Virus record (IMG/VR): IMGVR_UViG_3300032239_001225
Coordinates: 1 to 62,047 of that record
Strand: one strand, 5' to 3'
Origin: a virus
Lineage: Duplodnaviria > Caudoviricetes
Length of the DNA: 62,047 nucleotides
Shown here: positions 1-55,298 of the stretch, in pieces
Layout: the number at the start of each line of letters is the position of its first letter
How positions within the stretch are numbered: the stretch's first letter is position 1
Notes under the pieces: generated by a model
Databases searched by the model: none
What the model was told of the DNA's origin: nothing
Seen by the model: the letters and a program-made list of their open reading frames with translations, nothing else
Position numbers and translations under genes: made by a program

Positions 1-66
1 GAAACAAAAATACAAAAAAGTATATGGCAAGGACACTTCCTCGGTGTTAATAGCTTAACTAAATAA
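1..66 (+). CDS. C-terminal fragment of upstream gene, probably scaffold or prohead protease (ETKIQKSIWQGHFLGVNSLTK*)
   Basis: Open frame from base 1 to TAA at 64-66, directly upstream of the major capsid gene; function inferred from position only. Confidence 0.55.
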   Translation, partial: ETKIQKSIWQGHFLGVNSLTK

Positions 67-75
67 TCTAGAAAA

Positions 76-97
76 AATAAGGTGGTGAAATAAATAA
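76..97 (+). promoter_or_regulatory. Extended Shine-Dalgarno leader AATAAGGTGGTGAAATAAATAA
   Basis: AAGGTGGTGA is a 9/10 match to the anti-SD complement; near-identical leaders precede 4439 and 54394. Confidence 0.7.
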
Positions 98-1225
98 ATG
101 AGTAATGAACTTTTACAAAAAGTAATAGATACAACAAATCTCGGAACATCAGGTTCTGATCTTTCAGGTGACGGACGTACCCTCTCAGGTACTGGTTTAC
201 TTTATCCAGATCAGGCTAATCGTTTCCTTGATTACATGTGGGATGCAACGATTCTTGCTAAGGCAGCTCGTACAATCCGCATGCGTTCAAACACAACAGA
301 GATTGATCGTGTTGCAGTAGGACAAAGAATCATGACAGTTGCACAGGAAGATAATCCTCGTGATTATGTTAACGCTGGTGGATCACAATTCGCTAATGCA
401 GCAGCAACTTTCGCAAAGATTTCTTTGACAACTCGCAAGCTTCGTCTTGATTGGGAACTTTCATCTGAGTCTCTTGAGGATAACCTCGAAGGCCCAGACC
501 TAGAAGATCACATTGCACGTTTGATGGCTACCCAGGCTGGTAACGACATTGAGGATGTTTTGATCAATGGTACAGGTACTGACACTGGTTTGCTCTCAGC
601 GTTTAAGGGCTTCCGTAAGCTTGCAGTAGACAACGCTCACGTTGTTGATGCACAGGGTGTTGGACTTGATAAGGCTGTTTTCAACCTTGCAATTAAGACC
701 CTCCCACGTAAGTACAAGCAACGCCGTAATCAGCTTCGCTTCTTCACAGGATCGAATTTGGTACAAGATTACCTATACAACCTAACAGCTAATGCTGGTT
801 CGCTCAACCCATTCGATATCGCTTCTGGCGTTATTCGTGGTGATGTTGCAGCTAACGATGGTGGTCCAGGTACTACTACTCCGTTTGCTTTCGGTATTCC
901 CGTTATCAACGTTCCATTGATGGATGAGACACTTGCTGGAGATTACAATTCTCCTTCAGGTCTTCATGGAGATGTCCATTTGACATTCCCGCAGAACTTC
1001 ATCATTGGTATCAAGCGTGATGTAACTGTCTATCGCTTGTTCCAACCAAAGAAGGATACAATTGAGTATACCCTCTTTATACGTGTTGGTGCAGCAATGG
1101 AAAACTACGACGCACACGTTATCGTTAAGAACGTCAAGGTATCAGGTTCAGTTGCCGATGGTGCATTTGGTTCCGTATCACACGGAGCACATGTCCAAGG
1201 TGGTAACTCAACATACACATTCTAA
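98..1225 (+). CDS. Major capsid protein (HK97 fold)
   Basis: 375 aa; L.P.QA.RF.D, ESLEDNLEG, NDIED..INGTG and P.N.I.G motifs; strong leader and downstream terminator. Confidence 0.92.
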   Translation: MSNELLQKVIDTTNLGTSGSDLSGDGRTLSGTGLLYPDQANRFLDYMWDATILAKAARTIRMRSNTTEIDRVAVGQRIMTVAQEDNPRDYVNAGGSQFANAAATFAKISLTTRKLRLDWELSSESLEDNLEGPDLEDHIARLMATQAGNDIEDVLINGTGTDTGLLSAFKGFRKLAVDNAHVVDAQGVGLDKAVFNLAIKTLPRKYKQRRNQLRFFTGSNLVQDYLYNLTANAGSLNPFDIASGVIRGDVAANDGGPGTTTPFAFGIPVINVPLMDETLAGDYNSPSGLHGDVHLTFPQNFIIGIKRDVTVYRLFQPKKDTIEYTLFIRVGAAMENYDAHVIVKNVKVSGSVADGAFGSVSHGAHVQGGNSTYTF

Positions 1226-1242
1226 TTTTAAATTAGATGCAA

Positions 1243-1280
1243 GATCGGGGGAATACACGAGTATTCCCCTTGATCATTTT
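1243..1280 (+). terminator. Intrinsic terminator after capsid gene
   Basis: GGGGAATAC-ACGA-GTATTCCCC stem extended by GATC/GATC, followed by ATTTT. Confidence 0.75.
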
Positions 1281-1281
1281 C

Positions 1282-1290
1282 TGCTATAAT
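1282..1290 (+). promoter_or_regulatory. Extended -10 promoter (TGcTATAAT)
   Basis: Consensus TGnTATAAT just after the terminator and upstream of 1315. Confidence 0.6.
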
Positions 1291-1314
1291 TATCAATGAC
1301 GAGAGGAAAAATAA

Positions 1315-1701: not shown

Positions 1702-1716
1702 TAGGAGGCAATTCAA

Positions 1717-2664
1717 TTGCAAGATATAACCAAAGGTACGCAAGAAAAAATACACTTAAACGTATTTAATGATAATGTGTTGGTGCAAGCAGACCACCCA
1801 CCATTGGTTACTATCTACGATGCCGATAATGATGCTAACCCAATCCCTGGGTTCACGGGGATTGCAACAGACGAAGAACCAGAAGGTATATACTCATATA
1901 TGCTAACTCCTTCTTTAACAGATGTTACTCGTGTTTTAAAAATTGTATGGGCATATTCAATCAATTCTGTAGCATTTACTCAATATGATTATTACAGAGT
2001 AAGTCAAGTATATGCTACTGTAAGTGATATTATAGACTTTATGGGATTTGGATCTACTCCATATGACCTCAATTATCAAAGTCCCGAAAAAATTACATCT
2101 GCTGAAAAGCTTGCCAGAACTATTATTGATGGCTACACTGGACAATCATTTTCTACATATTATGGTTCACAAGAAGTATTTGGTACAGGTTCAGATGCTG
2201 CAGAATTAACAGAAAGAGCTTTAACTCTTGATAAAGTTTGGGAAAACGACATACTTGTAATTGATAATACTGTAGATCCTTATATCAATACATTTGGGTT
2301 TGCACTTGAAATAAGCCCAACAGGTAGAGCAATAAGAATTGTAAATGCGGGATGGGATGTAAGGTATGATAATCAAGTAGACCCATTAGTATTATATTAT
2401 GGTAGATTTAGAGCAGGAACAAGATATAAGTTCCAAGGTCAAATTGGATATAAGTATGTACCAGAAGATATTAAAATTGCAGCAATGTTGCTAGTCGGAG
2501 ATATTCTTGCTAATGACTTTAACTGGAGAAACAAGTATCTTAAAAAGATTGACCTTTCCGAAATTTCATTTGAAATGGCAGGGGGAGCATTTAACGGAAC
2601 TGGTAATGTAACTGTAGATAATATCTTGGATCAATACCGCAACGTTAATATCATAATCATCTAA
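1717..2664 (+). CDS. Head-to-tail adaptor protein
   Basis: YATVSDI, ARTIIDGYTG and G.IGY..VPEDIKIAAMLL motifs typical of adaptors; TTG start with GGAGG SD. Confidence 0.75.
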   Translation: MQDITKGTQEKIHLNVFNDNVLVQADHPPLVTIYDADNDANPIPGFTGIATDEEPEGIYSYMLTPSLTDVTRVLKIVWAYSINSVAFTQYDYYRVSQVYATVSDIIDFMGFGSTPYDLNYQSPEKITSAEKLARTIIDGYTGQSFSTYYGSQEVFGTGSDAAELTERALTLDKVWENDILVIDNTVDPYINTFGFALEISPTGRAIRIVNAGWDVRYDNQVDPLVLYYGRFRAGTRYKFQGQIGYKYVPEDIKIAAMLLVGDILANDFNWRNKYLKKIDLSEISFEMAGGAFNGTGNVTVDNILDQYRNVNIIII

Positions 2665-3119
2665 TGTTAAATTCAATTATAGGTTCTATTATGAACATGT
2701 CTGCAGAAATATTTATGCAGCAGAATGCCCAAGATCCTGCATCAGGTGCTATAACCAGAGAATGGGTTTATGAAAAAACAATTCCTTGCAAGATTGAACC
2801 ATTTAAAGCAAGAGGAACAAGTTCAAGAGGAGACAGTAAGACCTTCTCAGCGGGCAATAATGCACAAGCAGAATATACTGAAGGATTGCTACTTAAAATG
2901 AAATGTACAGAGCTTTTAAGTAAGCGTTGGAGAATAAACTTTATTAGATCAAGCGATGGTCAACCAGTGTTTGTTGAAATAGATAGATATGGAAATCCAG
3001 ATTCTGTATTTGAAGTTGTTGCATCACATGCAGTTCTTGATCCGTTTGGAAAAGTTTCATATTATGAAGCCACATTAAAGAGAGTTCCTGTCCAAACAAA
3101 TGATAAAACTATCAATTGA
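2664..3119 (+). CDS. Head-to-tail stopper/closure protein
   Basis: Position after adaptor; beta-rich 151 aa with QDP.SG....W and DPFG motifs. Confidence 0.6.
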   Translation: MLNSIIGSIMNMSAEIFMQQNAQDPASGAITREWVYEKTIPCKIEPFKARGTSSRGDSKTFSAGNNAQAEYTEGLLLKMKCTELLSKRWRINFIRSSDGQPVFVEIDRYGNPDSVFEVVASHAVLDPFGKVSYYEATLKRVPVQTNDKTIN

Positions 3120-3828
3120 TCAAATAAGTTTAAATAGTTTAAGTAAAGAGCTTGAATCAAAAATTGAAACATTTTCTAAGTTTACAGAAAGCTCAATAAT
3201 AGATGATATTGCAAGAGCAGCTTTTGTAATATTAGGTGAAAGATTTATGAAGGCTACAGATGTTTACTCTTCTGTTTTTCCTAAAAGAATGCACCATGTA
3301 TATGAGTGGAAGCAAGTTGGAAATCCAAGAGCAAGATTATTTGTACTTGAAAGATCATATATTTTAAATGGAAAACTTGAAATATCTTCAAAATTTTTAA
3401 TGTCAAAAACTCCAGTTCCAGTTCCTGCTGAATTAACTGCTATTAATAAAAAGGGTAAATATGTAAGCACACGAACTATTTTTGCACAAAAAGCAGAAGT
3501 TATGGAAAGCGGAAGAGCGGTAAGTTTTGTAGCAAAAAAGACCTTGGCGTTTTTGGGCACACAAGGTATTCAATTTATAAGAGCAGGAAAAATTGTTAAT
3601 ATAGCAAATCCTGGAGGAGTAGCAGTAAAGAACTCTTTTGGAACTCATATGTCTGAATGGTTTGCTAAGAATTCTCAACCAATTATGGATTCTTCTGGGT
3701 TATATGAGAAAATAGTACAAGAAGCAACCAAAGTACTTAACCAAAATGGAGCGGGAATAAAGGATGTAGAAATTGTTGTAAAGCAAATAGTAGATACAAT
3801 AGCAACGAATATGGTGGAGATTAAATGA
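3100..3828 (+). CDS. Neck/tail completion protein (putative)
   Basis: Position in the neck module; HHVYEW motif. Confidence 0.45.
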   Translation: MIKLSIDQISLNSLSKELESKIETFSKFTESSIIDDIARAAFVILGERFMKATDVYSSVFPKRMHHVYEWKQVGNPRARLFVLERSYILNGKLEISSKFLMSKTPVPVPAELTAINKKGKYVSTRTIFAQKAEVMESGRAVSFVAKKTLAFLGTQGIQFIRAGKIVNIANPGGVAVKNSFGTHMSEWFAKNSQPIMDSSGLYEKIVQEATKVLNQNGAGIKDVEIVVKQIVDTIATNMVEIK

Positions 3829-4340
3829 CTGCAGATTATAAAAAGATAGCTTTCTATGATATTAGAAACGTTTTATGGCAAGAATTACAAAACGCCAACA
3901 TGTTGGATTATAACGACTATTATGCTGATGGATTTGATGAGGGTATGATTCCTATTATCCCAGCACAAGAAATTCCAGAATTTAATAATTTATTGCCAGG
4001 AAAAACATATATAATTTATGATATTGTTAAAAAGAACATAGGCGTGGGCTGGTGGATGGACGAAGAAACTGTCACCTTAAGCATTGTTTCAAGAAGTCAA
4101 AATCAGATTCAAACAATAGTCAACTTCCTAGTTGACGTATTTAGAAGATATGACAAATCGGCCAAAGAAGTTCAACTGCAAATATCCGCAAATAGTCCAT
4201 TTAAGTTTCATTATTTTAAGCTTGATTCTGCAGACCCAGTTCAAGCCTTTAGTGATGAGGGCGGGTTTATGTTGGGCAATATATCAATCTCGTATGCTTT
4301 TACAAGAGATCTAGACCCAGTTACTGGAAGATACCTATAA
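3825..4340 (+). CDS. Tail terminator protein (putative)
   Basis: 171 aa immediately upstream of the tail tube gene. Confidence 0.55.
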   Translation: MTADYKKIAFYDIRNVLWQELQNANMLDYNDYYADGFDEGMIPIIPAQEIPEFNNLLPGKTYIIYDIVKKNIGVGWWMDEETVTLSIVSRSQNQIQTIVNFLVDVFRRYDKSAKEVQLQISANSPFKFHYFKLDSADPVQAFSDEGGFMLGNISISYAFTRDLDPVTGRYL

Positions 4341-4438
4341 ATTTGCTTTATATCAAACTAATGCTATCCTTTTATATGAGGAAGTAAAATTGTTTTATTT
4401 TTTTTATTCTAAATAAAATAAGGTGGTGAAATAAAAAA

Positions 4439-5167
4439 ATGGCTACAAATACAAAAAATGTTATTGTCGGAGCAGCAGATCTATTCCTTAGCGTTGGAAA
4501 CAACTCTAATTCAACTGGTCGTCCAGCTACTGACGCAACAACTCTAGGATCTTTGTTTGGTGCAACTCAGTCAGCACGTACAGGTCTATTATCGTCAACT
4601 GCTTACAGCGAACTCGGATTCACATCAACAGGTCTTGAAATTTCATACGAACCAGTATATGGTGAAGTAATGGTTGATCAGCTTTTAGACGCAGCTCGTT
4701 TATTCAAGCAAACCCTTAAGGTTATGCTTAAGACAGAGCTTGTAGAAGCAACTCTTGAGAATCTTACTCTTTCATGGGGTCAGATGGATTCATACTATGT
4801 AAACGCTTCAGGAAGTGCGATTTCTAATGTAAACACATTAGCATCAGGAACTCCAGTAAATGCTGAGACAGGTGCAACCCTTAATATGGCTGCAGGTGCT
4901 CTCGGAGATGCTCCAGTAGAACGTACACTCATTGCTGTTGGAAATGCTCCATCAACAATTAAGGGTGCTGCAACTACAAAGCGTAACAAAGAGCGTGTAT
5001 ATGTTGCACGTCGTGTTGTTTCAATTGACACAACGGCTCACGGATTAAAGCGTGATTCAGCAACAGTATTCCCAGTAAACTTCCGTTGCTTACCAGATGA
5101 TTCAAATGCTTCTTATGCAGGAGCTGAATATGGTGTAGTAATTGACCGTGTATGGGGATCTAATTAA
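4439..5167 (+). CDS. Major tail tube protein
   Basis: NVIVGAA, LGFTS.GLEISYEP and T.L.EATLENL motifs; strong leader and terminator. Confidence 0.88.
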   Translation: MATNTKNVIVGAADLFLSVGNNSNSTGRPATDATTLGSLFGATQSARTGLLSSTAYSELGFTSTGLEISYEPVYGEVMVDQLLDAARLFKQTLKVMLKTELVEATLENLTLSWGQMDSYYVNASGSAISNVNTLASGTPVNAETGATLNMAAGALGDAPVERTLIAVGNAPSTIKGAATTKRNKERVYVARRVVSIDTTAHGLKRDSATVFPVNFRCLPDDSNASYAGAEYGVVIDRVWGSN

Positions 5168-5198
5168 TTTAAAAAATTAGTCTACAACTTAATATTGA

Positions 5199-5240: not shown

Positions 5241-5252
5241 TACTTATTTTAT

Positions 5253-5624: not shown

Positions 5625-5908
5625 ACTTACGCTCCTTAGAATCCGAAGTATTCTTGCTAGGTCATTGGAAAAATTTTGATGAACTAGAATCTAATCTCTC
5701 TTTGGAGGAATTGATGGCTTTGCTTGATGTTTCAAGAAAAAAAGATTATGATGACAAGAAGTTTATTGCAGCAATAAATGGAGTTGATCTTGAAGAGCAA
5801 TCTAAAGACAACGAAGATATAGCTGATCTTAAAGGTTTTGCAGCAAGCAAAGATGGCTTTGGTGTAGATCAAGGTATCGCAGTGATGCAAATGGGGGAGG
5901 ATGAGTAA
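5591..5908 (+). CDS. Tail assembly chaperone frameshift extension (gpT-like; track ORF 5654..5908)
   Basis: -1 frame reads PTRSGTSWDGLDLRSLESEVFLLGHWKNFDELE... without stops into the track ORF. Confidence 0.75.
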   Translation, partial: PTRSGTSWDGLDLRSLESEVFLLGHWKNFDELESNLSLEELMALLDVSRKKDYDDKKFIAAINGVDLEEQSKDNEDIADLKGFAASKDGFGVDQGIAVMQMGEDE

Positions 5909-8900
5909 TGGCACAAGTTGAATTAAATATAGTTGCCCTTGGCGATTTCTCCTCCGTTAATGCACAGATAAAATCTTTGCAAGAACAAGTATTGCTTTTA
6001 CAAAAGAATATGGCAGGAGTTGGAGTAAGCTCTAACTTTGCTAAAGAATTAGCAAGTGTCAACGCAGCATTCAGGCAAACAATGCTATCAACTGGTCAAT
6101 TTACTGCTGCAACAGTAAAAATGACTTCAGAAACAGAAAAATTTGGTCAAGCACTTGTTACTGGTAAATTAAAACTTACTGATTATTACAATATAATTAA
6201 ACAAAAGAATTCTGAAGCAGTAACTCAAATGAAAGCTCTTGCAGTAGAGCAAACAAAACTTCAAAATTCTATAGTTATGAATGATCCTTCTAAGCAAGGA
6301 ATTCTTTCTGTATACACCCCAACTCAAATTAATAAAGTTGCAAATGCTACAAAGATTGCAACTCATGAAGCAAATCTTTATGCTATAGCAGTTCAAAAAG
6401 GATCTGAGCAATTAATTACTTGGGGTAAAAATACTCAGTGGGCAGGTCGTCAGTTAACTGTTGGTATGTCTGTTCCACTTATGATATTTGGACAGCAAGC
6501 AACAAAAGTATTTACTGATGTAAATAATGAATTAGTTAGATTACAAAAAGTTTATGGAACAGGTTTAGTACAACCTTCAAAGCAAGCACTTGATGCAATA
6601 AAATCACAAGTTACAGGATTAGCAAGAGAGCTTGCAAGCACTATGGGTGTTGCTGCAAAAGATACTGCAGCAATGGCAGCTGACTTAGCTGCAACTGGAA
6701 AAACTGGAAATGATTTGCTTGTAGCAACAAGAGAAGCTATGAGGCTTTCAAAATTAGGAGAGCTTGATACTCAAGCAGCAATGAAAGCAACAGTATCATT
6801 GCAAAATGTTTATAAGTTAAGCACACAACAACTTTCTGGAGCAATAGATTTTCTTAACGCAGTTGAAAACCAAACATCAACAAGCTTACAAGATTTAGTT
6901 GATGGTATTCCCCGTGTAGGACCAATTGTTCAACAACTTGGCGGTTCCTTCAAAGATACTGCTGTAATGATGGTAGCTATGAAAGAAGCAGGAGTTCCAG
7001 CAGCTCAATCTGCAAATGCAATTAAATCTGCAATTGCTTCATTAATTAATCCTACAGTAGGTGCACAAAAAGCTTTTGCTGCATTTCATATTAATTTAAA
7101 AGATATAGCAACTTCAACAGGTGGAAATCCAATAAAAATGATTATGGAGTTGCAAACTGCATTAAAAGGTTTGCAGCCTTTAGCACAAGCTCAATTAATT
7201 GAAAAGCTTTTTGGTAAATTCCAAGAAGCAAGAATCCAAGCACTTATAGCAAATTTGGGTGCTAATAATAGTCAAACAAAAACAGCTTTTGACCTTATGA
7301 ATGCTAATAGTCAACAACTTGCAGCAGTAGCTGCGGGAGAAATGAAAACTGCCACAGAGTCAGTTACTGGCAAATATCAAAGATCATTACAAACTTTTAA
7401 AGCTAATTTAATTCCAGTAGGACAAGAATTAGTTAAAATAGCAACTAAGCTTTTAGATTTTGGAAATTCAGTGGGTAAAGTATTTAGTGGATTGCCAGGA
7501 CCATTAAAATCTATTATGGGTGCAATTGCAATAGGTATTGCATTAGCTGGTCCAATTATTATGTTAACTGGTTTATTTGCTAACTTTGCAGGATATGTAT
7601 TAAAAGGATTTTTTAATTTAAAACAGTTAGCAACAGGTGGAAAAACATTAGGTCAGCTTTTAACACCAGAATTAATTGCTGCAGAAAATGCAAGTAGGTT
7701 ATTTCAATCAGGAATTGCTGGAGATGTTGAAGCAGTAAATCTTCTTTCAAAGGCTATTAAAGATTTAACATTAAGTATTGAAAGCATGGTTGGTTCAATT
7801 TCAACAGGAACAGGAATTGGTAGAGTTCTGCAAAATGTTGCAACAACAGCAAGAACTGCAGAACAAATGCCTCTTCCAGGATTTGCAACTGGAAAGATGC
7901 CAAGTGGCATTGTTCCAGGAACTGGCTCTGGAAAGGTTGATACTTTCCCAGCAATGCTTGCACCAGGTGAGCTTGTTGTTGATACAGAAACAACAAGGAA
8001 ATATTGGCCACTATTAAGTCGAATAGTTACTGGAAAAGTTCCAGGATATCACGAAGGAAATTATTATGATACTAAGGGCAACTTACAGGCATTAGGTCCA
8101 CACAGTCATACATCATCAAGTCAAATTGATAAAAGAAGTAAAGAAAGAATAACAGAGCAAAGCGGAAATGCTGTATATGTTGGCCCACAAGCTGGTAATG
8201 AAGGAAGCGGTTCTATACCATCAGTCTTAAGTGGCCTTGCTGGTTATATTTCTAGAATTAGTGGTTTGGGTAATAAGTTAGAGCAAGAAGTTACTCCAGC
8301 AGTTAATGCCTTAGCCAAAGAATTAGAATTTGACCCAATGAGTGCTAATTCACAAAGAGCACAAATTTCAATGATGCATTTTTCTCCAAAAAGAACTGTA
8401 TTGCCAGGAGATGATCCAAGTAAAGGAACAAGAAAAGTTTGGGATTTCCCAGATATGGCAGCAGGTTCTCAAGGAGATAATCAGCTTTCAGTATACTTTG
8501 ATGCAACTAAAACCACTGGTAAAAAAATACGTCCATACTTAATGGGACAAGCAGAAAAAGCAAGAGCAGCAATGATTGCTGAAATTACAGATCCAAAAAC
8601 AGGAATTCTTAATGAAAACGATAGAAAAGAAGCACTTAAAGCAATAGAAGAAGGATTTGCTACAGTAACATCTGGTGGGGCAGCTATAACAAAAGAAGCA
8701 GTAGATTTAACTCATAGAGTAACTGATTTAGTTGTACAAGATATTAAAAATAAATCTGATAATTTGCCAGAGCAAATTGTTGCTCCAGAAAAATTAGATA
8801 AAAAAGGAAATATTAAATCAAAGCGTCAATTGACTGGTGCTGGCTATGATATTCTTTGGGCAAATGAAACAACAAGAAGACAGCTTTCAGGAGAACTCCC

Positions 8901-47116: not shown

Positions 47117-47151
47117 CAAGTTATTAAACAACTACTAGAGAGAGTATAATT

Positions 47152-47400: not shown

Positions 47401-47408
47401 ATAGTTTT

Positions 47409-47483
47409 GGTCCAATAGCTTAATCTGGTTAAAGCATTAGTCTTATATACTAACGAGTGTAGGTTCAAATCCTACTTGGACTA
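47409..47483 (+). tRNA. tRNA-Ile (TAT)
   Basis: GGTCCAA/TTGGACT acceptor, TTAGT-CTTATAT-ACTAA anticodon arm, TTCAAAT T-loop. Confidence 0.85.
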
Positions 47484-47484
47484 C

Positions 47485-47561
47485 GGAGCAGTAGCTTAGT
47501 TGGTCAAAGCCCCGAACTCATAATTCGGTAATCGTCAGTTCAAGTCTGACCTGCTCCACCA
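47485..47561 (+). tRNA. tRNA-CAT (elongator Met or Ile2)
   Basis: GGAGCAG/CTGCTCC acceptor, CCGAA-CTCATAA-TTCGG, encoded CCA; lacks initiator features. Confidence 0.9.
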
Positions 47562-47562
47562 A

Positions 47563-47639
47563 GGTTCCATAGATCAATTGGTTAGATCGCCACCCTGTCA
47601 CGGTGGAGGTTACGGGTTCAAGTCCCGTTGGAATCGCCA
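47563..47639 (+). tRNA. tRNA-Asp (GTC)
   Basis: GGTTCCA/TGGAATC acceptor, CCACC-CTGTCAC-GGTGG, G73, encoded CCA. Confidence 0.93.
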
Positions 47640-47640
47640 G

Positions 47641-47713
47641 GCCCCAGTAATCCAGTGGTAGAGATAGTGGACTTAAAATCCATACAGCGACAGTTCGAAT
47701 CTGTCTTGGGGTA
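47641..47713 (+). tRNA. tRNA-Leu (TAA), short variable loop
   Basis: GCCCCAG/TTGGGGT acceptor, GTGGA-CTTAAAA-TCCAT, TTCGAAT T-loop. Confidence 0.85.
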
Positions 47714-47750
47714 CAAAGTTTAAAGTTAATCTGATAAATAAGGAATCAAA

Positions 47751-48704
47751 ATGAAAAACAAAACAGTATTAATAACGGGTGGCTTAGGCTTTATTGGTTC
47801 ACATGCAATCAGTAAATGGATAAAAAAAGGTTGGAAAGTAGTTGTTTTTGATAATCTTTCTTCAAATGTTATAGATATAGACAATAAATTATTAAAAAAT
47901 GTTGAGTTAGTTATAGGTGATGTTTCAAAGATAAAATATACAAAAAAAATTGACCTTATAATTCATTTAGCCTCTCCAATAGGAACAGTTTCTCTGCTTG
48001 ATCATCCTGGCAAAATTGCAAAAATAATTATTGATGATTTATATTCAGTTATATCTTTATCTAAAGATAACAAATGTCCTTTAATATTTGCATCTACATG
48101 TGAAGTATATGGTAGCAAAAAAAATATTTTTGTTACAGAAAATGATGAAAAAGTTGTGTCAAGTAAATATGAAGTAAGAAGCGAATATTCAGTAGCAAAA
48201 ATGTTATGTGAAGTTATTTTATCAAACATAGCAAAATCTGATACAAGCTTTAAATACCAGATTATAAGACCATTTAATGTGGCGGGGCCAAATCAAAAAT
48301 GGTCTGGTGGTCATGTAATACCTAGATTTGTAAAGCAAGCAAAATCAAATGAAGACATAACTGTATATGGAAACGGTATGCAAATACGGTCTTTTACTTA
48401 TGTAGAAGATGTTATTAATGCCATTTATTTAATTTCTAAAGCACCAAACAGATTATATAATAATACTTGGGATGTAGGAAACATTCAAAATGCAATAACA
48501 ATAGATGAATTAGCACATTTAATAAAAGATATTTCTAATTCTAATTCAAAAATAGTTTATGTAGATCCAAAAAATTTGCATGGAAAATTGTTTTCAGAAG
48601 TTAATACAAAAATTTCTCAAAGCAATAAATTAACAAAATTTTTTGGATGGAAATCAACAAAAGATTTAAAAAGCATATTAAAGGAAATAATATATGAGAA
48701 ATAA
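47751..48704 (+). CDS. NAD-dependent nucleotide-sugar epimerase/dehydratase/decarboxylase (extended SDR)
   Basis: TGGLGFIGSH, HLAS, ASTCEVYG, YSVAK, RPFNV.GP and RSFTYVED. Confidence 0.9.
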   Translation: MKNKTVLITGGLGFIGSHAISKWIKKGWKVVVFDNLSSNVIDIDNKLLKNVELVIGDVSKIKYTKKIDLIIHLASPIGTVSLLDHPGKIAKIIIDDLYSVISLSKDNKCPLIFASTCEVYGSKKNIFVTENDEKVVSSKYEVRSEYSVAKMLCEVILSNIAKSDTSFKYQIIRPFNVAGPNQKWSGGHVIPRFVKQAKSNEDITVYGNGMQIRSFTYVEDVINAIYLISKAPNRLYNNTWDVGNIQNAITIDELAHLIKDISNSNSKIVYVDPKNLHGKLFSEVNTKISQSNKLTKFFGWKSTKDLKSILKEIIYEK

Positions 48705-49416
48705 AATTGGAATTATTGGATATGGAGAAATTGGATCTGGTCTTTATTCTTTGTATAACAAATTTAATTACCCTATTGCAGTATTAGATCCTAAACTTGA
48801 ATATAAAGATGAAATGTCTGGTTGTTATATATTAAATATTTGCATACCATTTTCAGATAATTTTGTTGATATTGTTAATGATTATATAAATAAATATAAA
48901 CCTTTTATGACAATAATTCATTCTACAATTGCTCCAGGAACCACAAAAAAAATAATTGGTGCTGTTTGTCATTCACCCGTTCGTGGAACTCATCCAAATA
49001 TTTATGAGGGGCTAAAAACATTTTTAAAATATATAGGATCAGAAGATAGCAAAATTGCTTTAAAATATCAAGAACATTTAACGGAATTAGGTATTAAATC
49101 TTATATTTGCAAAGATAGCAAAACAACAGAGTACTCCAAGCTGTTAGACACAACATACTATGGTTTATGCATAGCATTTCACTCAGATGTTCTTGCTATG
49201 TGTGAAAAAGAAAATTTAGATTTTTATGAAGTAATGACATTATTTAATACGACTTATAATGAAGGATACGGTATTTTAAACAAACATAATTATATTCGAC
49301 CAGTTTTATATGGAGATAAAAAAATAGGTGGCCATTGTGTTGTTCCAAATGCTAAAATATTAAAAAATTATTTTGATTCAAATATTATTGACAATATCTT
49401 AAAATATGATGTATAA
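48694..49416 (+). CDS. UDP-glucose/GDP-mannose dehydrogenase family protein (short form)
   Basis: GIIGYGEIG Rossmann motif, HSTI.PGTT, E..KL and IGGHCV catalytic Cys. Confidence 0.75.
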   Translation: MRNKIGIIGYGEIGSGLYSLYNKFNYPIAVLDPKLEYKDEMSGCYILNICIPFSDNFVDIVNDYINKYKPFMTIIHSTIAPGTTKKIIGAVCHSPVRGTHPNIYEGLKTFLKYIGSEDSKIALKYQEHLTELGIKSYICKDSKTTEYSKLLDTTYYGLCIAFHSDVLAMCEKENLDFYEVMTLFNTTYNEGYGILNKHNYIRPVLYGDKKIGGHCVVPNAKILKNYFDSNIIDNILKYDV

Positions 49417-49417
49417 T
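49388..49417 (+). promoter_or_regulatory. Sigma-A promoter TTGACA-N18-TATAAT
   Basis: Perfect hexamers 7 nt upstream of the structured element. Confidence 0.75.
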
Positions 49418-49424
49418 AAAAATA

Positions 49425-49534
49425 GGTTATACACGGCACACCTTGGGATGTTATAGTTACAATATAATGTACACCCGATGTAAGAGTCAGGTGAGACAGG
49501 GCAGCCATTCAGTGCTGGAAATCCGTGTATAACC
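49425..49534 (+). ncRNA. Candidate structured ncRNA of unknown family
   Basis: Perfect 12-bp terminal stem GGTTATACACGG/CCGTGTATAACC with inner helices; own promoter; abuts tRNA-Gly. Confidence 0.55.
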
Positions 49535-49538
49535 CCTT

Positions 49539-49609
49539 GCGGATGTTGCATATTGGTAGTGCCTCTGCCTTCCAAGCAGAAGGGGTCAGTTCGATTCTGA
49601 TCATCCGCT
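49539..49609 (+). tRNA. tRNA-Gly (TCC)
   Basis: GCGGATG/CATCCGC acceptor, TCTGC-CTTCCAA-GCAGA, U73. Confidence 0.92.
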
Positions 49610-49614
49610 CACAT

Positions 49615-49685
49615 TCCCAGATCGTCTAACGGTAGGACACGGCCCTTTGGAGGCTGGTATCTTGGTTCGAATCCAGGTCAGGGAG
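49615..49685 (+). tRNA. tRNA-Gln (TTG)
   Basis: TCCCAGA/TCAGGGA acceptor (one A-A mismatch), CGGCC-CTTTGGA-GGCTG, TTCGAAT. Confidence 0.85.
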
Positions 49686-49730
49686 CAAATAATGTTATAA
49701 TATATTTATATTAATTTTTTAGGAGATACA

Positions 49731-50420
49731 ATGCCATACAAAATTGTACAACACGGAAATAAGTTTTCAGTAGTAGCACAAAATACTGGAAATGTTGCAG
49801 GAACACATGAATCTAAAAAGCAAGCACAGGCACAAATGGCTGCTTTATATGCAAATGAACCAGAGGCAAGTGTAAAAAAGTGTATGACTTGCGGATGCGA
49901 TGATTTAGGTAACGATCATCATTATATTTCTGATACAGAAAAGTGTATGTCATGTATTGAAAAGAAACAAGGGCCATGTTGGGATGGATATGCTTATGCT
50001 GGAACCAAAGATAAAAATGGTAAGACTGTTCCAAATTGCATTCCCGTCAAAAAATCTGATGGTGGATATCAACCAAATGCAGGTATGAAAGCTGCAGCAC
50101 GTAGAGCTTTAAAGTGGAAAGAAGATGGAAAAGCAAATGGTGCAGGAACTGGTGTAGGTTGGGGACGTGCAAGCGATATTGCTGCTGGTAGATCAATGTC
50201 TCTTGATACTGTAAAAAGAATGTTTTCTTTCTTTTCACGTCATGAAGTTGATAAGCAAGGAAAAGATTGGGATAAACCATCTCACGGAAAGATTATGTGG
50301 AATGCTTGGGGCGGAGATGCTGGGTATTCATGGTCTCGTGCAATTGTTGAAAGAGAAAAGAAAATTGAAAAAGAAATCTGGAAAGGTGCTTTTTCGCCAA
50401 GCATAAAGAAAAATAAATAA
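49731..50420 (+). CDS. Modular protein, putative internal head protein
   Basis: Short modules separated by xxK sites; C-terminal IWKGAF motif. Confidence 0.6.
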   Translation: MPYKIVQHGNKFSVVAQNTGNVAGTHESKKQAQAQMAALYANEPEASVKKCMTCGCDDLGNDHHYISDTEKCMSCIEKKQGPCWDGYAYAGTKDKNGKTVPNCIPVKKSDGGYQPNAGMKAAARRALKWKEDGKANGAGTGVGWGRASDIAAGRSMSLDTVKRMFSFFSRHEVDKQGKDWDKPSHGKIMWNAWGGDAGYSWSRAIVEREKKIEKEIWKGAFSPSIKKNK

Positions 50421-50421
50421 A

Positions 50422-50820
50422 ATGTCATTTCAAAAAGAGTCAGCAGGTGCTGGACGAATTAGTGGTGGCGTAGGCTTTAAGCTTGAATACAATGTTCCAG
50501 ATTGTCAAGGCGGATATGCCATTACAAAAGCGGGAACTGGTCAAGTAATTGGTTGTTATACAACTAAAGAGCATGCTGAAGAAGCAATGAAAGCAATTGC
50601 AGTTAATGAACCAGTAGTTAAATCAGATCAAACACAACAAGATAATCAAGATGGCATAGGTGCACTTCACACATGGGCTGGATCATTTGCACCAGTTTTT
50701 GGCAATGAAAAAGTTCAATTTAGCTGGATGTCTAATTACAATACTCCGCCACAGAAAGATGGGCAGCCGTCAGTTGGATACGGAAATAGTTCAAGCCCAG
50801 AAGGTAAATCTAATTCTTGA
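50422..50820 (+). CDS. Modular protein sharing a domain with 49731
   Basis: TG.V.G....K..A...M.A...NEP module; WAGSFAP motif. Confidence 0.55.
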   Translation: MSFQKESAGAGRISGGVGFKLEYNVPDCQGGYAITKAGTGQVIGCYTTKEHAEEAMKAIAVNEPVVKSDQTQQDNQDGIGALHTWAGSFAPVFGNEKVQFSWMSNYNTPPQKDGQPSVGYGNSSSPEGKSNS

Positions 50821-50821
50821 T

Positions 50822-50851
50822 TTGACAGCAATATAAACAATTTGATATAAT
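50822..50851 (+). promoter_or_regulatory. Sigma-A promoter TTGACA-N18-TATAAT with extended TG
   Basis: Consensus upstream of hsp20. Confidence 0.75.
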
Positions 50852-50856
50852 ATACA

Positions 50857-50914
50857 TGAATTGCTTTCGGGGATTCAAAAATCTAACTAACTTGCTGAAA
50901 AGGAGCTAAGTATA
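50857..50914 (+). promoter_or_regulatory. ROSE-like RNA thermometer 5' UTR
   Basis: CUUGCU-GAAA-AGGAG hairpin pairing the SD with a bulged G; upstream hairpin with UUCG loop. Confidence 0.6.
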
Positions 50915-51403
50915 ATGACACATTTAAAACCTTATGGATGGGATGAATATGAAGTCCATCAAACAAAAAAAACAACACCAACACAATATAACCCATTTGC
51001 AACAATTGAAGCATGGTTTAATGATCCATTCTTTTTGGGATTCCATGATCAATTTTCAAGATGGAATACTAATAAGGTAGCAACCTCTACATTCCCACCT
51101 TACAATGTTAAGAAAATTGATGAGGACAACTATATTGTTGAACTTGCAATTGCGGGATATGAGCGTGAAGACATTGATGTAACAGTAGATAAAGATACAT
51201 TAATTATCAAGAGTGAACGTGAGAATGATGATAAGGCAGATTACCTTCATAAGGGTATTGCTGGACGTAATTTTACACAAACATTCACCCTTGGTGAGTA
51301 TATGATTGTTAAATCTGCTGCACTTGATAATGGATTGTTAACTGTTAAAATTGAACGGGAACTTCCAGAGTCTGTTAAGCCTAGACAAATCAAGATCAAG
51401 TAA
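50915..51403 (+). CDS. Small heat shock protein (Hsp20/IbpA-like)
   Basis: FPPYN, ELAIAG, YLHKGIAGRNF and A.LDNGLL.V...R..PE..KPR.I.I. Confidence 0.93.
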   Translation: MTHLKPYGWDEYEVHQTKKTTPTQYNPFATIEAWFNDPFFLGFHDQFSRWNTNKVATSTFPPYNVKKIDEDNYIVELAIAGYEREDIDVTVDKDTLIIKSERENDDKADYLHKGIAGRNFTQTFTLGEYMIVKSAALDNGLLTVKIERELPESVKPRQIKIK

Positions 51404-51417
51404 GATATAATGTATAT

Positions 51418-51442
51418 GCAGGCTCTCATTGTGGGAGCCTGC
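51418..51442 (+). promoter_or_regulatory. 11-bp hairpin between hsp20 and the next ORF
   Basis: GCAGGCTCTCA-TTG-TGGGAGCCTGC just after a TATAAT box; no U-tract. Confidence 0.45.
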
Positions 51443-51460
51443 TCTAAACAAAGGATATAT

Positions 51461-51583
51461 ATGCCAAGCAATACAGATAAGATCAAGAAAGCTTTAGAAA
51501 TTCGTATTAAGAATCACAAGGGTCCAGGCGGTAAAGTTCCAGGGTCTATGAACAAAAAAAAGACTGGCTACGCTAAACCATAA
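51461..51583 (+). CDS. Small basic protein (40 aa, not in track)
   Basis: AAGGA SD; MPSNTDKIKKALEIRIKNHKGPGGKVPGSMNKKKTGYAKP. Confidence 0.5.
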   Translation: MPSNTDKIKKALEIRIKNHKGPGGKVPGSMNKKKTGYAKP

Positions 51584-51604
51584 AAACAATGTATAATTAG
51601 TTAT

Positions 51605-51856
51605 ATGTGGAACAAAATCTCAACATATGCTAGAAGATACCCTGCGAGAATATCGGGATATACTTCCGCATTAATTTTGTGGGGACATAAATATTTTTCG
51701 GGCAAACTTGTTGATCTATTAATACCTTCAATTATGTTTATGATTGGTATGGGGGAAATGGCTCAAAGAGCAGAAAATAAAAAGACAATAAAAGCACTTT
51801 ATACTGATAATGATCCACATAGATCAGATGAAGAAATAATTAAGGATATTATATGA
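51605..51856 (+). CDS. Small membrane protein
   Basis: Two moderately hydrophobic segments; ATG 7 nt after TATAAT. Confidence 0.55.
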   Translation: MWNKISTYARRYPARISGYTSALILWGHKYFSGKLVDLLIPSIMFMIGMGEMAQRAENKKTIKALYTDNDPHRSDEEIIKDII

Positions 51857-52296
51857 ACGAGCAAGATTTGATTGACGCTTTAAAAACATTAAAATCAATG
51901 GTTGTAAAAATGTATGTTCAATCTCACGGATATCATTGGAATGTAGAAGGATCTAATTTTCCACAATACCACAAGTTTCTTTTAAAAATTTATTCAGATG
52001 TATATGAGTCTATTGATCCAATTGCAGAAAATATTCGTAAATTAGGTGCAAAAGCACCATTTGGATTAAAGTCTTGGCAAGAAGGCAGCAAATTAGAAAT
52101 TAATGATTCAGAAAATCTTGATGCAAGGACTATGCTTCAAGAATTAGTACAAACTAATACAGTTGTTCTTGCAATGTTAAAAAGAACCTACGACATATCT
52201 AATGAATTAGATGAACAAGGTATATGTAACTTTTTAGCAGGAAGAATTGAGCAGCATAAATTCTGGCAATGGCAATTGACAAGCACTTTAAAGTAG
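51853..52296 (+). CDS. dps: Dps/ferritin-like DNA protection protein
   Basis: HGYHWNVEG..F..YH, D.IAE.IR.LG and H.F..WQL. Confidence 0.9.
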   Translation: MNEQDLIDALKTLKSMVVKMYVQSHGYHWNVEGSNFPQYHKFLLKIYSDVYESIDPIAENIRKLGAKAPFGLKSWQEGSKLEINDSENLDARTMLQELVQTNTVVLAMLKRTYDISNELDEQGICNFLAGRIEQHKFWQWQLTSTLK

Positions 52297-52304
52297 TATA
52301 GAAT
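52276..52304 (+). promoter_or_regulatory. Sigma-A promoter TTGACA-N17-TAGAAT
   Basis: Consensus upstream of tRNA-Lys and tRNA-Arg. Confidence 0.65.
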
Positions 52305-52320
52305 ACAACTACAACTTGAT

Positions 52321-52352
52321 AAGGGGCACTAGAAATAGTGCCTCTTGTGTTT
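52321..52352 (+). terminator. Hairpin (terminator or tRNA leader stem)
   Basis: AAGGGGCACTA-GAAA-TAGTGCCTCTT with a weak T-tract. Confidence 0.5.
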
Positions 52353-52425
52353 GTCCTTATAGCTCAGTCGGTAGAGCAGCAGACTTTTAATCTGCGGGTC
52401 GTTGGTTCGAATCCAACTGGGGACA
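52353..52425 (+). tRNA. tRNA-Lys (TTT)
   Basis: GTCCTTA/TGGGGAC acceptor, GCAGA-CTTTTAA-TCTGC, TTCGAAT. Confidence 0.92.
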
Positions 52426-52426
52426 C

Positions 52427-52498
52427 GCCTCTGTAGCTCAGCGGAAGAGCGTACGGTTTCTACCCGTCAGGCCAGGAGTTCGAATCTCTTCAGGGGCA
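52427..52498 (+). tRNA. tRNA-Arg (TCT)
   Basis: GCCTCTG/CAGGGGC acceptor, ACGG-TTTCTAC-CCGT, TTCGAAT. Confidence 0.88.
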
Positions 52499-52531
52499 CG
52501 TAAGAAAACAACTACTAACAGAAAGAGTAAA

Positions 52532-53416
52532 ATGAAAAAGTTAATCTTAGCAGTAATGATTGCAACAAGTTTAATTCCAGTATCAGCCAATGCAGATGTA
52601 CCAAATACAAACATTGCAATTATTGATACAGGTTATGATGCTTCAGTTGCACAATTTTCAGGAAAGATTGTATATGAAGTTTGTTTCACAAACAACTATT
52701 GTCCTAATGGTAAGTCCTTTCAAGAAGGAACAGGGTCTGCAGTATTAACACCTGCACAACTAACAGCAAAAGATGCTACGCATGGAACACAGATGTTATC
52801 TGCATCAATTGCAACAAACCCTAATACAAAGTTTGTTTATATTCGTGCTTACGGAATTAATAATGGTGTGTTAAATTCACCAGTAGATGCTGATTTTATT
52901 ACCATGCTTAGCTGGATTAATAATAATAAGACAAAGTTTAATATTGGTGCGGTTGTATGGAGTGGTGCTCGTCATATTACTACAGCATGTCCTGTAAATG
53001 ATCCAATTACAGCAGCAGTAATCAATCTTAACAATAATGGCATCCCAGTAATTTCTGCAGCAGGTAATGATTATGACTATGTTCACGTATCATTCCCCGC
53101 TTGCTTGCAACCAATTATTGCAGTAGGCTCAATTGACGCTTACGGACATGCACTTTACAGTAATGCTGGAAAAGATCTTGATTTTGATGCAATGGGAACT
53201 ATGACGGTTTCAAATGGCGGGACAGCAAAGATCCAATCAGTAGGAACTTCACTAGCAGCACAGGTATTTGCAGCATCTTGGATTGCAATTAAACAAGCAA
53301 AGCCAACACTTAGCTATCAGCAAGAATATGCTTTAATCCAAAACACACAAACTACCTCAAAAAACGTATATGTAAAAAATATACCTACGCTTAATTTGGC
53401 TGGGTCTCTAAAGTAA
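52532..53416 (+). CDS. Secreted subtilisin-like serine protease (S8)
   Basis: Signal peptide; IAIIDTG (Asp), HGT (His), AAGN oxyanion, GTS.AA (Ser). Confidence 0.88.
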   Translation: MKKLILAVMIATSLIPVSANADVPNTNIAIIDTGYDASVAQFSGKIVYEVCFTNNYCPNGKSFQEGTGSAVLTPAQLTAKDATHGTQMLSASIATNPNTKFVYIRAYGINNGVLNSPVDADFITMLSWINNNKTKFNIGAVVWSGARHITTACPVNDPITAAVINLNNNGIPVISAAGNDYDYVHVSFPACLQPIIAVGSIDAYGHALYSNAGKDLDFDAMGTMTVSNGGTAKIQSVGTSLAAQVFAASWIAIKQAKPTLSYQQEYALIQNTQTTSKNVYVKNIPTLNLAGSLK

Positions 53417-53473
53417 TAGAGTGTATAATAAGCATAGAGGAAGTTTTTGAGTCACTAATTTAGGGAGAATAAA

Positions 53474-54025
53474 ATGGGAGCAGCAAAACCAGTTCCACCA
53501 GTTACTGGAGCAAAAGAAGGATCAGCAGCACGATTTGTTGAAATTGCAAGATCGCAAATTGGCGTTATTGAAGGTCCAAAAGATAATGAAACAGATTTTG
53601 GTAAGTTTACAAAGCATGATGGACAACCTTGGTGTGGAAGCTTTATGATGTGGTGCGGATCACAATCAAAAGTAAAATTATTTGATGTAGTTTCTACAAT
53701 TGCGGGTGCAGAAGCATATAAAAAAGCAGGAAAGTGGACGGATGCAAAAGATGCAACCCCAAAGCCAGGAGATTTAATCTTCTTCCACTTTGCAGCAGAA
53801 GCAAAGCCAACAGATCAGATTCAACACGTTGGTGTTGTCGTTAAAGACAATGGCGATGGAACAATTGTAACTGTTGAGGGAAATACAAGTCCAGACTCAA
53901 AGCCAGCAGGATCTGCAGCAAATGGCGGAGAAGTTGCAATGAATGTTCGTGGATATAAAGTTGGCAACAAGCGTGGCAAGTGGGCTGTTGTTGTAGGCTT
54001 TGGTCATCCAGACTACACAGCATAA
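53474..54025 (+). CDS. CHAP-domain peptidoglycan hydrolase
   Basis: QPWCGSF, PKPGDL.FF, HVGVV and TVEGNT. Confidence 0.85.
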   Translation: MGAAKPVPPVTGAKEGSAARFVEIARSQIGVIEGPKDNETDFGKFTKHDGQPWCGSFMMWCGSQSKVKLFDVVSTIAGAEAYKKAGKWTDAKDATPKPGDLIFFHFAAEAKPTDQIQHVGVVVKDNGDGTIVTVEGNTSPDSKPAGSAANGGEVAMNVRGYKVGNKRGKWAVVVGFGHPDYTA

Positions 54026-54032
54026 GGTTAAA

Positions 54033-54359
54033 ATGGATTACGATTCTTCTGATGAAAACCATCAAGAACTTATGGAGTATCTTGTTTCAGAGGGTGCTGC
54101 CATAATTGACGGGATAGACGACAATGGAGAAGCAATTTACAGGTTCGATATGGAGATTTTGGAAGAAGTAATGCCAGAATTACATCAAGTTCTTGTACAA
54201 GATATGGACAATATTTTAATTGATTTATATCAAAAAGACTTAATAGAAGTATCTTATGACGAAAATCTAAACGCTCATATGACAGTTTCAGAAGAGGGTA
54301 AAAGAATCCTTGAAGAAAATGGTTTTGATATGAGCAGTTCGGAAGATTATGACTTTTAA
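54033..54359 (+). CDS. Acidic hypothetical protein
   Basis: ATG 54033 after AAGG; track ORF starts at 54000. Confidence 0.6.
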   Translation: MDYDSSDENHQELMEYLVSEGAAIIDGIDDNGEAIYRFDMEILEEVMPELHQVLVQDMDNILIDLYQKDLIEVSYDENLNAHMTVSEEGKRILEENGFDMSSSEDYDF

Positions 54360-54393
54360 GGTATAATTAGACAATAAGGTGGTGATTAAATAA

Positions 54394-54630
54394 ATGGATA
54401 ACAATCAACAGGTATCAGGCAGCGGAACAGAGCAGCCATCAAGCCCAGCACACGTTGCTGAGCAAGCAGGGCCAGACGGAGGTCACGTAACACCTTCAGT
54501 AACAAATCTTGGTGTAAACAACCCTGGAAAGGCAACTACAGCAGGAGCATTCACTGGATCAGATGTTTCAATGACAACCCCACAACATGGTGGCGGTAAT
54601 ATTACAACAACTGAGGCAGGTTCAAAGTAA
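54394..54630 (+). CDS. Small low-complexity protein with a capsid-gene-type leader
   Basis: AATAAGGTGGTGATTAAATAAATG leader; TATAAT upstream. Confidence 0.6.
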   Translation: MDNNQQVSGSGTEQPSSPAHVAEQAGPDGGHVTPSVTNLGVNNPGKATTAGAFTGSDVSMTTPQHGGGNITTTEAGSK

Positions 54631-55298
54631 TGAATACTAAAGAATTTTTTAATGAAGTAGCAGATATGTTAAAAGCAATCGGAACTTCATCTTCAATTAA
54701 TGAAGAGCGTGACGAAAGAAGCGTTGAAAATTATGTTAGAGGAAATTCTAACACTAATACAAATAATCAGACAGGAGGTAATACAATAGTGTCAAACACA
54801 ACAGAGCCAGATCCAAAGGGAGACATTGCAGTAACAAAGTCATTCCCAACAGCAGGAGGAGATCATCTTGTTTCACAAGATACTCGTCCAACAGATGGAG
54901 CAACTTCAGTTTCAGATGCACCTAACAGCGAAGCAGTTGTTCCTAATCAGGAAACAATTCCTAGCTCAGCAACCTCAGCAATTGCACCATCACGTCAAGG
55001 TGAAATGCAAAATGCCACAGAAGAAAATATTGCAAAGGCAGCAACTTGCAAAGAGTGCGGTCAAGCACTTCCAGTAGCAAAAGCTGATGAAATCACAAAG
55101 GCAGCAGCATGTGCAGATTGCGGAAAGTCTATGGACTTATGCGATTGCATGGGTAAAGCAGTAGATTCAGAATCTAAGGAAACTCCTGCTGATGAAGCAA
55201 GAGAAACAAAAGATGAGCAAGCTGCAGAAGCAAAAGCAGGAACTGAGAAGCCAATGAAGAAGTCCCTATGGGGCGGAGCATTTGCACCACTTAAGTAA
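54630..55298 (+). CDS. Disordered modular protein, putative internal head protein
   Basis: Repeated xxKA sites, CxxC modules and C-terminal KSLWGGAFAPLK. Confidence 0.6.
   Translation: MNTKEFFNEVADMLKAIGTSSSINEERDERSVENYVRGNSNTNTNNQTGGNTIVSNTTEPDPKGDIAVTKSFPTAGGDHLVSQDTRPTDGATSVSDAPNSEAVVPNQETIPSSATSAIAPSRQGEMQNATEENIAKAATCKECGQALPVAKADEITKAAACADCGKSMDLCDCMGKAVDSESKETPADEARETKDEQAAEAKAGTEKPMKKSLWGGAFAPLK

Follow-up and report, generated by a model that had tools for sequence, protein, structure and literature searches.

The 62,047-base IMG/VR record IMGVR_UViG_3300032239_001225 (Duplodnaviria; Caudoviricetes) raises the question of why a short W-x-G-x-F peptide should occur both at the end of the gene just upstream of the major capsid gene and near the ends of accessory proteins, designated P0002, P0003 and P0004, that are encoded about 50 kb away. 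The sequence examined, referred to here as the window, is the entire record, which is linear and estimated to be 56% complete, and the gene truncated at base 66 was therefore unrecoverable from its own record. As judged from relatives, that gene appears to encode a head maturation protease fused to a scaffold. The W-x-G-x-F peptide may then imitate the scaffold tail and act as a tag for capsid loading, leading to co-assembly of the accessory proteins into the prohead, a reading to which we give about an even chance. The features concerned, all on the + strand, are as follows.

1–66, + strand: 3' end of the putative protease-scaffold gene (21 codons plus stop), with the tail KSIWQGHFLG and the W codon at 25–27.
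98–1225, + strand: HK97-type major capsid protein of 375 amino acids (aa), matching Phage_capsid PF05065 and phrog_1623; the proposed receptor of the tail.
49731–50420, + strand: P0002, 229 aa, with the C-terminal end EKEIWKGAFSPSIKKNK before the stop and W at 50379.
50370–50399, + strand: tail motif of P0002, K214-E-I-W-K-G-A-F-S-P223.
50422–50820, + strand: P0003, 132 aa, carrying LHTWAGSFAP and consisting of a DUF2188-like domain, the motif and a conserved 43-residue end.
50674–50694, + strand: motif of P0003, W-A-G-S-F-A-P, 48 residues from the C-terminal end.
54630–55298, + strand: P0004, 222 aa, with the C-terminal end KKSLWGGAFAPLK before the stop and W at 55269.
55257–55289, + strand: tail motif of P0004, K210-K-S-L-W-G-G-A-F-A-P220.

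Reading of the window placed all four peptides where the preliminary description had put them, and the translation of 1–66 is ETKIQKSIWQGHFLGVNSLTK followed by the stop. The peptide had been described as C-terminal; none of the four forms the literal terminus, with W located 13 residues from the stop in the 1–66 gene, 13 in P0002, 9 in P0004 and 48 in P0003. In the consensus then proposed, K-x-[IL]-W-x-G-x-F, the prefix is seen in three of the four, with H-T in P0003. A six-frame scan of the window detected W.G.F five times, every time in a + strand coding frame, and did not find it in the capsid protein. The fifth match (53630) belongs to the CHAP-domain endolysin and was rejected as a tag. 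Among 80 crudely called proteins, W.G.F occurs four times, compared with an expectation of 0.63 when residues are shuffled (at most 3 in 300 shuffles), and three times no more than 60 residues from the C-terminal end, compared with 0.14 expected (maximum 2 in 300 shuffles). Further matches rejected as tags were the GVWGG type in WhiB-like proteins (GVWGGIY at 56301–56645 of the window, and GVWGGVF, which fits W.G.F, at 68679–69005 of record G002), FFWDGYT in 56018–56326 and its homologues, and WFNDPFF at the N-terminus of the Hsp20 protein.

Relatives of the capsid protein were collected from IMG/VR (596 confirmed, 80 loci retained). The cultured relatives are Gilson-type Streptomyces phages, the capsid protein being 56% identical to the major capsid protein of Streptomyces phage Gilson. 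In locus L003, which encodes a 98% identical capsid protein, the gene order is portal (63–1649, 528 aa), protease-scaffold (1703–3079, 458 aa) and capsid (3111–4235), a separate scaffold gene being absent from the interval between the portal and capsid genes, and the final 21 residues of the 458-aa protein are identical to the product of 1–66 in the window. The order in Gilson is portal, a 152-aa open reading frame (ORF), protease and capsid, and the homologue there, gp30, is annotated as a capsid maturation protease. The L003, Gilson and L075 proteins score 24.2–28.3 bits against Peptidase_S78 (cut-off 21) and match phrog_9427, ‘head maturation protease’, with E values from 1e-115 to 1e-187; the L003 protein also matches Peptidase_S78_2. 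An AlphaFold model of the L003 protease (mean predicted local distance difference test score, pLDDT, 58) includes a beta-rich domain at 30–213, a disordered acidic linker at 234–339, one long helix of 90 residues at 341–430 (pLDDT 60–72) and a disordered tail from 425, and residues 362–455 of the protease-scaffold give weak apolipoprotein-like helical matches. Given the S78 match, the long helix and the lack of any other gene between portal and capsid in L003 that could serve as the scaffold, the upstream gene is, on sequence and model evidence, an S78 prohead protease fused to a scaffold-like C-terminal half. Full-length versions, such as the one of 458 aa in L003, could thus be obtained from relatives, and the earlier guess of a scaffold or protease, made from position, is supported by the S78 and phrog_9427 matches, the location between portal and capsid genes, and the helix. 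PDB sequence searches with the profiles of the protease-scaffold and the capsid protein revealed no related solved structure.

The tail of this protein is maintained among relatives. Where 50 or more upstream codons were available, W.G.F is found within the last 25 residues in 73 of 74 relatives and W.[GN].F in all 74; a further 3 loci were excluded for want of upstream sequence. Every motif variant tallied continues with F-L, and W lies 11–13 residues from the end in 71 of the 74. In a 22-row alignment extending to 38% identity, only A425, K428 and S429 of an ATAVKKS block, together with W446, G448, F450 and L451, are invariant over the last 120 residues. Hence, as judged from this alignment, the tail is the most conserved part of the C-terminal half of the protease. 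The C-terminal end of Gilson gp30 is STWGGRFLGLSDLH, and the more distant protease of record G006 ends in KSLWGGRFL..., the tail being KVQKSLWGGRFL.... At the other putative partner, residues 1–12 of the capsid protein (98–133), MSNELLQKVIDT, are invariant in 21 relatives and are followed by a variable Gly/Ser-rich stretch. These 12 residues are a candidate for the place where the scaffold makes contact or where processing occurs.

The accessory families, in each of which the motif proved to be conserved among homologues, carry it in different settings. P0004 consists of a conserved N-terminal block, a TTEPDP..IAV.KS block, CxxC pairs, an acidic stretch and the tail; no other invariant block of the family is as long as the tail motif. 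All 16 homologues found in IMG/VR end in MKKS[LIV]WGGAF[AS]P plus 3–8 residues. In 17 sequences, the codons of the motif vary synonymously at 7 of 12 positions, and this variation points to selection acting on the peptide. A profile search of 1.84 billion representative proteins (clustered at 50%) gave 45 hits, from which 9 long repetitive zinc-ribbon proteins were excluded and 36 were fetched. W.[GN].F occurs 9–22 residues from the end in 31 of the 36, with K-S ahead of it in most. Of the five exceptions, four are without the family's C-terminal part and are possibly fragments, and the fifth has L in place of F. A SFFSRHE signature is present at the N-terminus of the P0004-like body in 4 of the 36, each with a single tail. 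The phrog_2859 domain was confirmed in both proteins of this type that were scanned, one of which also contains Hva1_TUDOR, a module occurring in the L075 protease. No match to P0004 was found in the cultured-phage collection. Seven of the 36 relatives (P0017, P0022, P0027, P0035, P0037, P0038 and P0051) include a DGS[FY]PI...L.NAI module, either N-terminal or directly before the tail; it had no Pfam or PHROG match in the four scanned (P0017, P0035, P0037 and P0051).

P0002 is composed of a DUF2188-like N-terminal domain, a Cys/His knuckle, a CWDGY module, a helical phrog_2859 domain (113–213) and the tail, with residues 213–229 predicted to be disordered. P0003 starts one base after the P0002 stop, and the two belong to one modular family, which in many relatives is encoded by a single fused ORF whose junction lacks the motif. 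Here, in the window, they are separated (50370–50440) by about 20 residues that include the motif, then a stop and a new start. Fifty-seven distinct ORFs with the phrog_2859 domain were counted, with W.G..F also allowed. The motif follows the domain by at most 40 residues in 41 of these; in 15 of the remaining 16 the domain is fused directly to the P0003 module, and of these 15, 14 have the motif 48–56 residues from the end. Where the genes are split, the downstream P0003-like gene has a motif of its own 48 residues from the end (5 of 5 loci). Small versions of 115–139 aa in other lineages end ...EKVWNGSPFSFRKG or ...KFWQASPFNLKG, and G006 is the sole record with a small version that also holds the protease. 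The small Cys-rich protein P0010 of L131, which ends in INKDISWGGSFAPIKKI, has the motif as well. Fusions in relatives aside, P0002, P0003 and P0004 have no similarity to each other beyond the motif. A fold search with a P0002 model against PDB returned nothing at E ≤ 0.001, and in the ESM Atlas residues 108–229 matched unnamed viral clusters only, the nearest named family being DUF6321 at 0.86, which is a lead only. A second conserved C-terminal segment of P0003, W.STYN.PPQ.DGKP.VGYGN... (50695–50817), lies past the motif and is kept in relatives.

The relation between the two kinds of tail was assessed with profiles. An 18-column profile built from 54 distinct protease tails, when run against all 535 six-frame ORFs of the window, ranked the P0002 tail first (E 4.3e-4). 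Conversely, with a profile of 60 accessory tails, the protease was the best non-accessory match, at a significant level, in two of five relatives, G004 (E 0.0098) and G003 (E 0.038). The core common to the protease and the wider P0004 family is K-S-hydrophobic-W-x-G-x-F. A recent DNA repeat or recombination cassette was rejected as the source of the tails, as synonymous sites differ. The accessory tails are therefore old selected peptides and not recent copies, because they are of a type of their own, F-[AS]-P, and differ at synonymous sites. The preliminary description had the scaffold tail copied onto three proteins. A similar peptide is indeed present, but ‘copied’ is too strong, given F-[AS]-P versus F-L-G, the synonymous differences and a significant likeness in P0002 only; as judged by these profiles, tail-to-tail similarity is statistically firm for P0002 only.

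A connection with the head is indicated by fusions. In 1 of 63 full-length proteases, that of the L075/G004 record, residues 208–393 align to residues 41–214 of P0002 with 38% identity. No motif is present past the P0002 domain in this fusion, and no free copy was found in the record, which is 82% complete. Among unrelated phages, the phrog_2859 domain also opens the 836-aa ‘major head protein’ of Synechococcus phage S-CBS1, which adjoins the portal gene, and a coil protein encoded directly upstream of the head-morphogenesis gene in Vibrio phage 1.112.O. In Limnohabitans phage DC31, the domain is fused to a protein encoded near the capsid gene, and on our reading of its sequence the fusion partner would be an XkdF-like protease. 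Further records with the domain are annotated ‘capsid maturation protease’ or ‘head morphogenesis’. In none of the four head-module fusions read (L075/G004, S-CBS1, 1.112.O and DC31) is there a motif after the phrog_2859 domain. So, on present sequences, the same modules are seen either as part of a head-interior protein or as free proteins that carry a tag themselves.

With the identity of the upstream gene, the conservation of the motif, the selection on the peptide and the fusion pattern established, the following mechanism is proposed. The base-66 gene would encode the head maturation protease fused to the phage's sole scaffold, and its flexible tail would, by analogy with other scaffolds, grip the interior of the capsid shell during assembly. 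The peptide of P0002, P0003 and P0004, K-S/E-hydrophobic-W-x-G-x-F-[AS]-P, would dock at the same or an overlapping site on the capsid, and the accessory proteins would be built into the prohead alongside the scaffold. The pattern amounts to at least one tag per polypeptide: fused modules share one tag for the whole chain, a split gene, as in the window, has a tag on each product, and a P0002 body fused into a head protein has no motif past the domain. After use, the tag might, speculatively, be clipped at its K-S bond by the prohead protease: the S78 protease of HK97 cuts between K103 and S104, and a K-S stands before the motif in the protease and also in most relatives of P0004. Delivery of the accessory proteins into the host would likewise be speculative. 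Taken more widely, the motif could be a portable tag in widespread uncultured, probably actinobacterial phages, with about 10 residues (K-S-hydrophobic-W-x-G-x-F-x-P) imitating the coat-binding end of the scaffold and loading any carrier, K-S clipping possible and modules shifting between scaffold-fused and free-tagged forms. This wider proposal is tentative and is held to be somewhat doubtful. A complex prediction of the capsid protein with the last 40 residues of P0004, run without controls, gave no answer (score 0.00) and counts neither way.

Several observations weigh against loading by a scaffold-like tag. With the protease-tail profile, the P0004 tail ranked third at E 0.1 and P0003 was missed, and the accessory-tail profile was weak beyond G003 and G004: for G005 the protease scored only E 0.98, and in G001 and G002 it did not reach the top 7. 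The tail types differ, F-[AS]-P in accessory proteins as opposed to F-L-G in the protease. Gilson has the protease tail and no accessory copy, none was seen in G005, and no cultured phage with tagged accessory proteins was found. Synechococcus phage S-CBS4 encodes a free-standing domain protein that lacks the motif, together with a protease that also lacks the tail. There is no strict motif in L206 and L146, and the position of the motif varies, being 48–56 residues from the end in P0003-type proteins, 144–207 in some fusions, and also between modules. The accessory genes and the head module are about 50 kb apart, the former standing amid mixed genes, such as those for Hsp20, Dps-like, subtilase and endolysin proteins. 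In addition, the loci were picked by homology, and the conservation counts are not counts of independent events.

The motif could instead bind a partner other than the shell, such as the portal, the protease domain (by substrate docking), the scaffold helix or a host protein, which we regard as unlikely. The conservation and fusion data would fit any common partner inside the assembling head, and present data fit portal and coat alike. The papers given here by PMC number are cited for the parts covered; in one, scaffolds are reported to interact with portals (PMC13386823). The F-L-G and F-x-P tails could also mean different sites. A host partner, in turn, would not account for the motif at the end of the protease-scaffold, seen in 74 of 74 relatives, or for its absence after the P0002 body in head-protein fusions. 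It is rather improbable that the likeness of protease and accessory tails is a short-motif coincidence or a relic of ancestry, the accessory motif having a separate role in fold-capping or oligomerisation. Only three to six positions are shared, the likeness is significant for P0002 alone, the reciprocal search is weak, and the WhiB-like proteins of the same phages contain G-V-W-G-G-[IV]-[YF] without any link to the head. Yet W.G.F, expected about 0.6 times in the whole proteome, forms the invariant core of the scaffold tail and of two or three unrelated accessory families, its predicted flexible, basic, near-terminal context is alike in both, and without a role connected with the head the pattern of fusions would be difficult to account for.

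A purely proteolytic role, with the motif chiefly a processing signal and targeting achieved by other means, is quite improbable. Here the prohead protease would recognise the motif or cleave there, for example at the K-S bond, trimming the scaffold and cutting the accessory modules. Hydrophobic-W is indeed immediately preceded by K-S in the tail of the protease and also in most relatives of P0004, and the protease of HK97, the founder of family S78, cleaves the HK97 capsid protein at K103/S104 (PMC10275583). The pattern [AP]-V-[KT]-K-S occurs twice in the 80 window proteins, as PVKKS in P0002 (50046–50060) and AVTKS in P0004 (54828–54842), compared with 0.1 expected; the L003 protease-scaffold has ATAVKKS in the 424–429 region, with A, K and S invariant, and this second short motif may be a processing site. 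In some fusions, the W-x-G-x-F motif is located between modules. Against this, 15 fusions of P0002 and P0003 modules have no motif at the junction, the residues before W are K-E in P0002 and H-T in P0003, and W.G.F is missing from the capsid protein. Moreover, clipping 9–13 terminal residues would gain little unless the tail had done an earlier job, as in T4 (PMC7411985). The pattern of at least one tag per polypeptide favours an address role over a pure cleavage or linker role.

Elements of capsid loading by a scaffold-like tag are familiar from other systems. The C-terminal part of the HK97 protease gp4 is needed for entry into the prohead, as Duda et al. reportedly found in 2013. We know of no other protein that shares the protease tail in HK97 or SPN3US, nor of a consensus peptide described there, the W-x-G-x-F motif itself not having been searched for in the literature. 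In P2 gpO and lambda C/Nu3, a prohead protease and a C-terminal capsid-binding scaffold are combined in protease-scaffold fusions or nested genes, an architecture matching that of the protease-scaffold here, although the families differ; to our knowledge, no accessory proteins sharing the scaffold tail have been described for either. Encapsulins use short flexible C-terminal peptides to load unrelated cargo into an HK97-fold shell. They differ in having no scaffold, protease, portal or DNA, and their peptide consensus is unrelated to the motif here.

In T4, the prohead protease removes a capsid targeting sequence from IPI-III and Alt, cargo that is ejected into the host, and the gp245 protease of SPN3US appears to need its C-terminus for incorporation into the prohead (both PMC7411985). 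P1 DarB carries a signal for capsid targeting at its N-terminus, and the P1 Dar proteins share no consensus according to the parts covered (PMC9024508). Like the peptide proposed here, these short signals send unrelated proteins to the prohead. Unlike it, the T4 and P1 signals are N-terminal, and those of T4 bind the scaffold core, whereas the tag here would be C-terminal or internal and resembles the scaffold tail. The nearest precedent is provided by the 80alpha scaffold and the SaPI1 protein CpmB, which have a common C-terminal RIIK motif that contacts the interior of the capsid protein, and for which swaps of the tails have been tested (PMC5644958). As in the proposal made here, a scaffold tail is reused on a second protein. 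However, CpmB is a satellite's rival scaffold that alters capsid size, while the carriers here come from the phage itself, fall into several modular families with no relation to one another and lack a scaffold-like coiled coil, and RIIK is unrelated in sequence to the present motif. Relative to T4, P1 and 80alpha/CpmB, a C-terminal tag like the scaffold's own tail on several of a phage's own accessory families would be a new form of an established principle. The concept of multidomain (polyvalent) proteins packaged in the head has been put forward (PMC5512222), with the present modules not named in the parts covered. DSL-LC01 is a metagenome-assembled genome, for which the parts covered include no virion proteomics (PMC10611076).

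For only some model phages are the head-interior proteins and the way they are loaded known, and sequence does not usually reveal either. If the tag reading is true, packaged proteins would be predictable directly from genomes in a large uncultured group of phages, and several widespread phage domains, namely phrog_2859, the P0004 family and small modules that go with them, would be assigned a likely location inside the head. The peptide would also offer a simple, testable handle for loading foreign proteins into HK97-fold capsids, and would link phage scaffolding to encapsulin-style cargo loading as its phage counterpart.

The gene neighbourhood includes a further shared element, which was located by an exact-copy scan.

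78–88, + strand: extended ribosome-binding site TAAGGTGGTGA before the capsid gene.
54375–54385, + strand: third exact copy of TAAGGTGGTGA, before the 78-aa ORF that precedes P0004.
54394–54630, + strand: low-complexity ORF of 78 aa, whose stop overlaps the P0004 start (TAATG).

Exact + strand copies are present only at 78, 4419 and 54375, ahead of the capsid gene, the gene at 4439 and the 78-aa ORF. The gene at 4439 encodes an Ig-domain protein, which we take to be a probable tail protein. The start regions 64–100, 4405–4441 and 54360–54396 are nearly identical, each consisting of ATAAGGTGGTGA, an A/T-rich spacer and ATG. The 78-aa ORF, which had no family match, is translationally coupled to P0004, and its ribosome-binding site is kept in 6 of 16 P0004 loci. 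A site common to the capsid gene, the 4439 gene and the P0004 operon may be taken as a weaker hint of a link between P0004 and the head.

Around the accessory genes, an Hsp20 gene (50915–51403) lies downstream of P0002/P0003, and ORFs with the same N-terminus follow in L130, L133, L135, L147 and L160. The genes for a Dps/ferritin-like protein (51853–52296), a subtilase (52532–53416) and the CHAP endolysin (53474–54025) are located between P0003 and P0004, and none of their products is tagged. Nine tRNA genes in three groups (47044–52499) surround the P0002 region. The large terminase gene (44857–46710) is about 44 kb downstream of the capsid gene, as is likewise seen in Gilson (terminase gp89), and an ORF of 2818 aa (5908–14364) occupies the position of the tape measure gene, which spans 6.3 kb in Gilson. 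The product of 56301–56645 is a small WhiB-like Cys protein, and this gene, together with the relatives among Streptomyces and Rhodococcus phages, indicates that the host is probably an actinobacterium, despite a G+C content of 35%.

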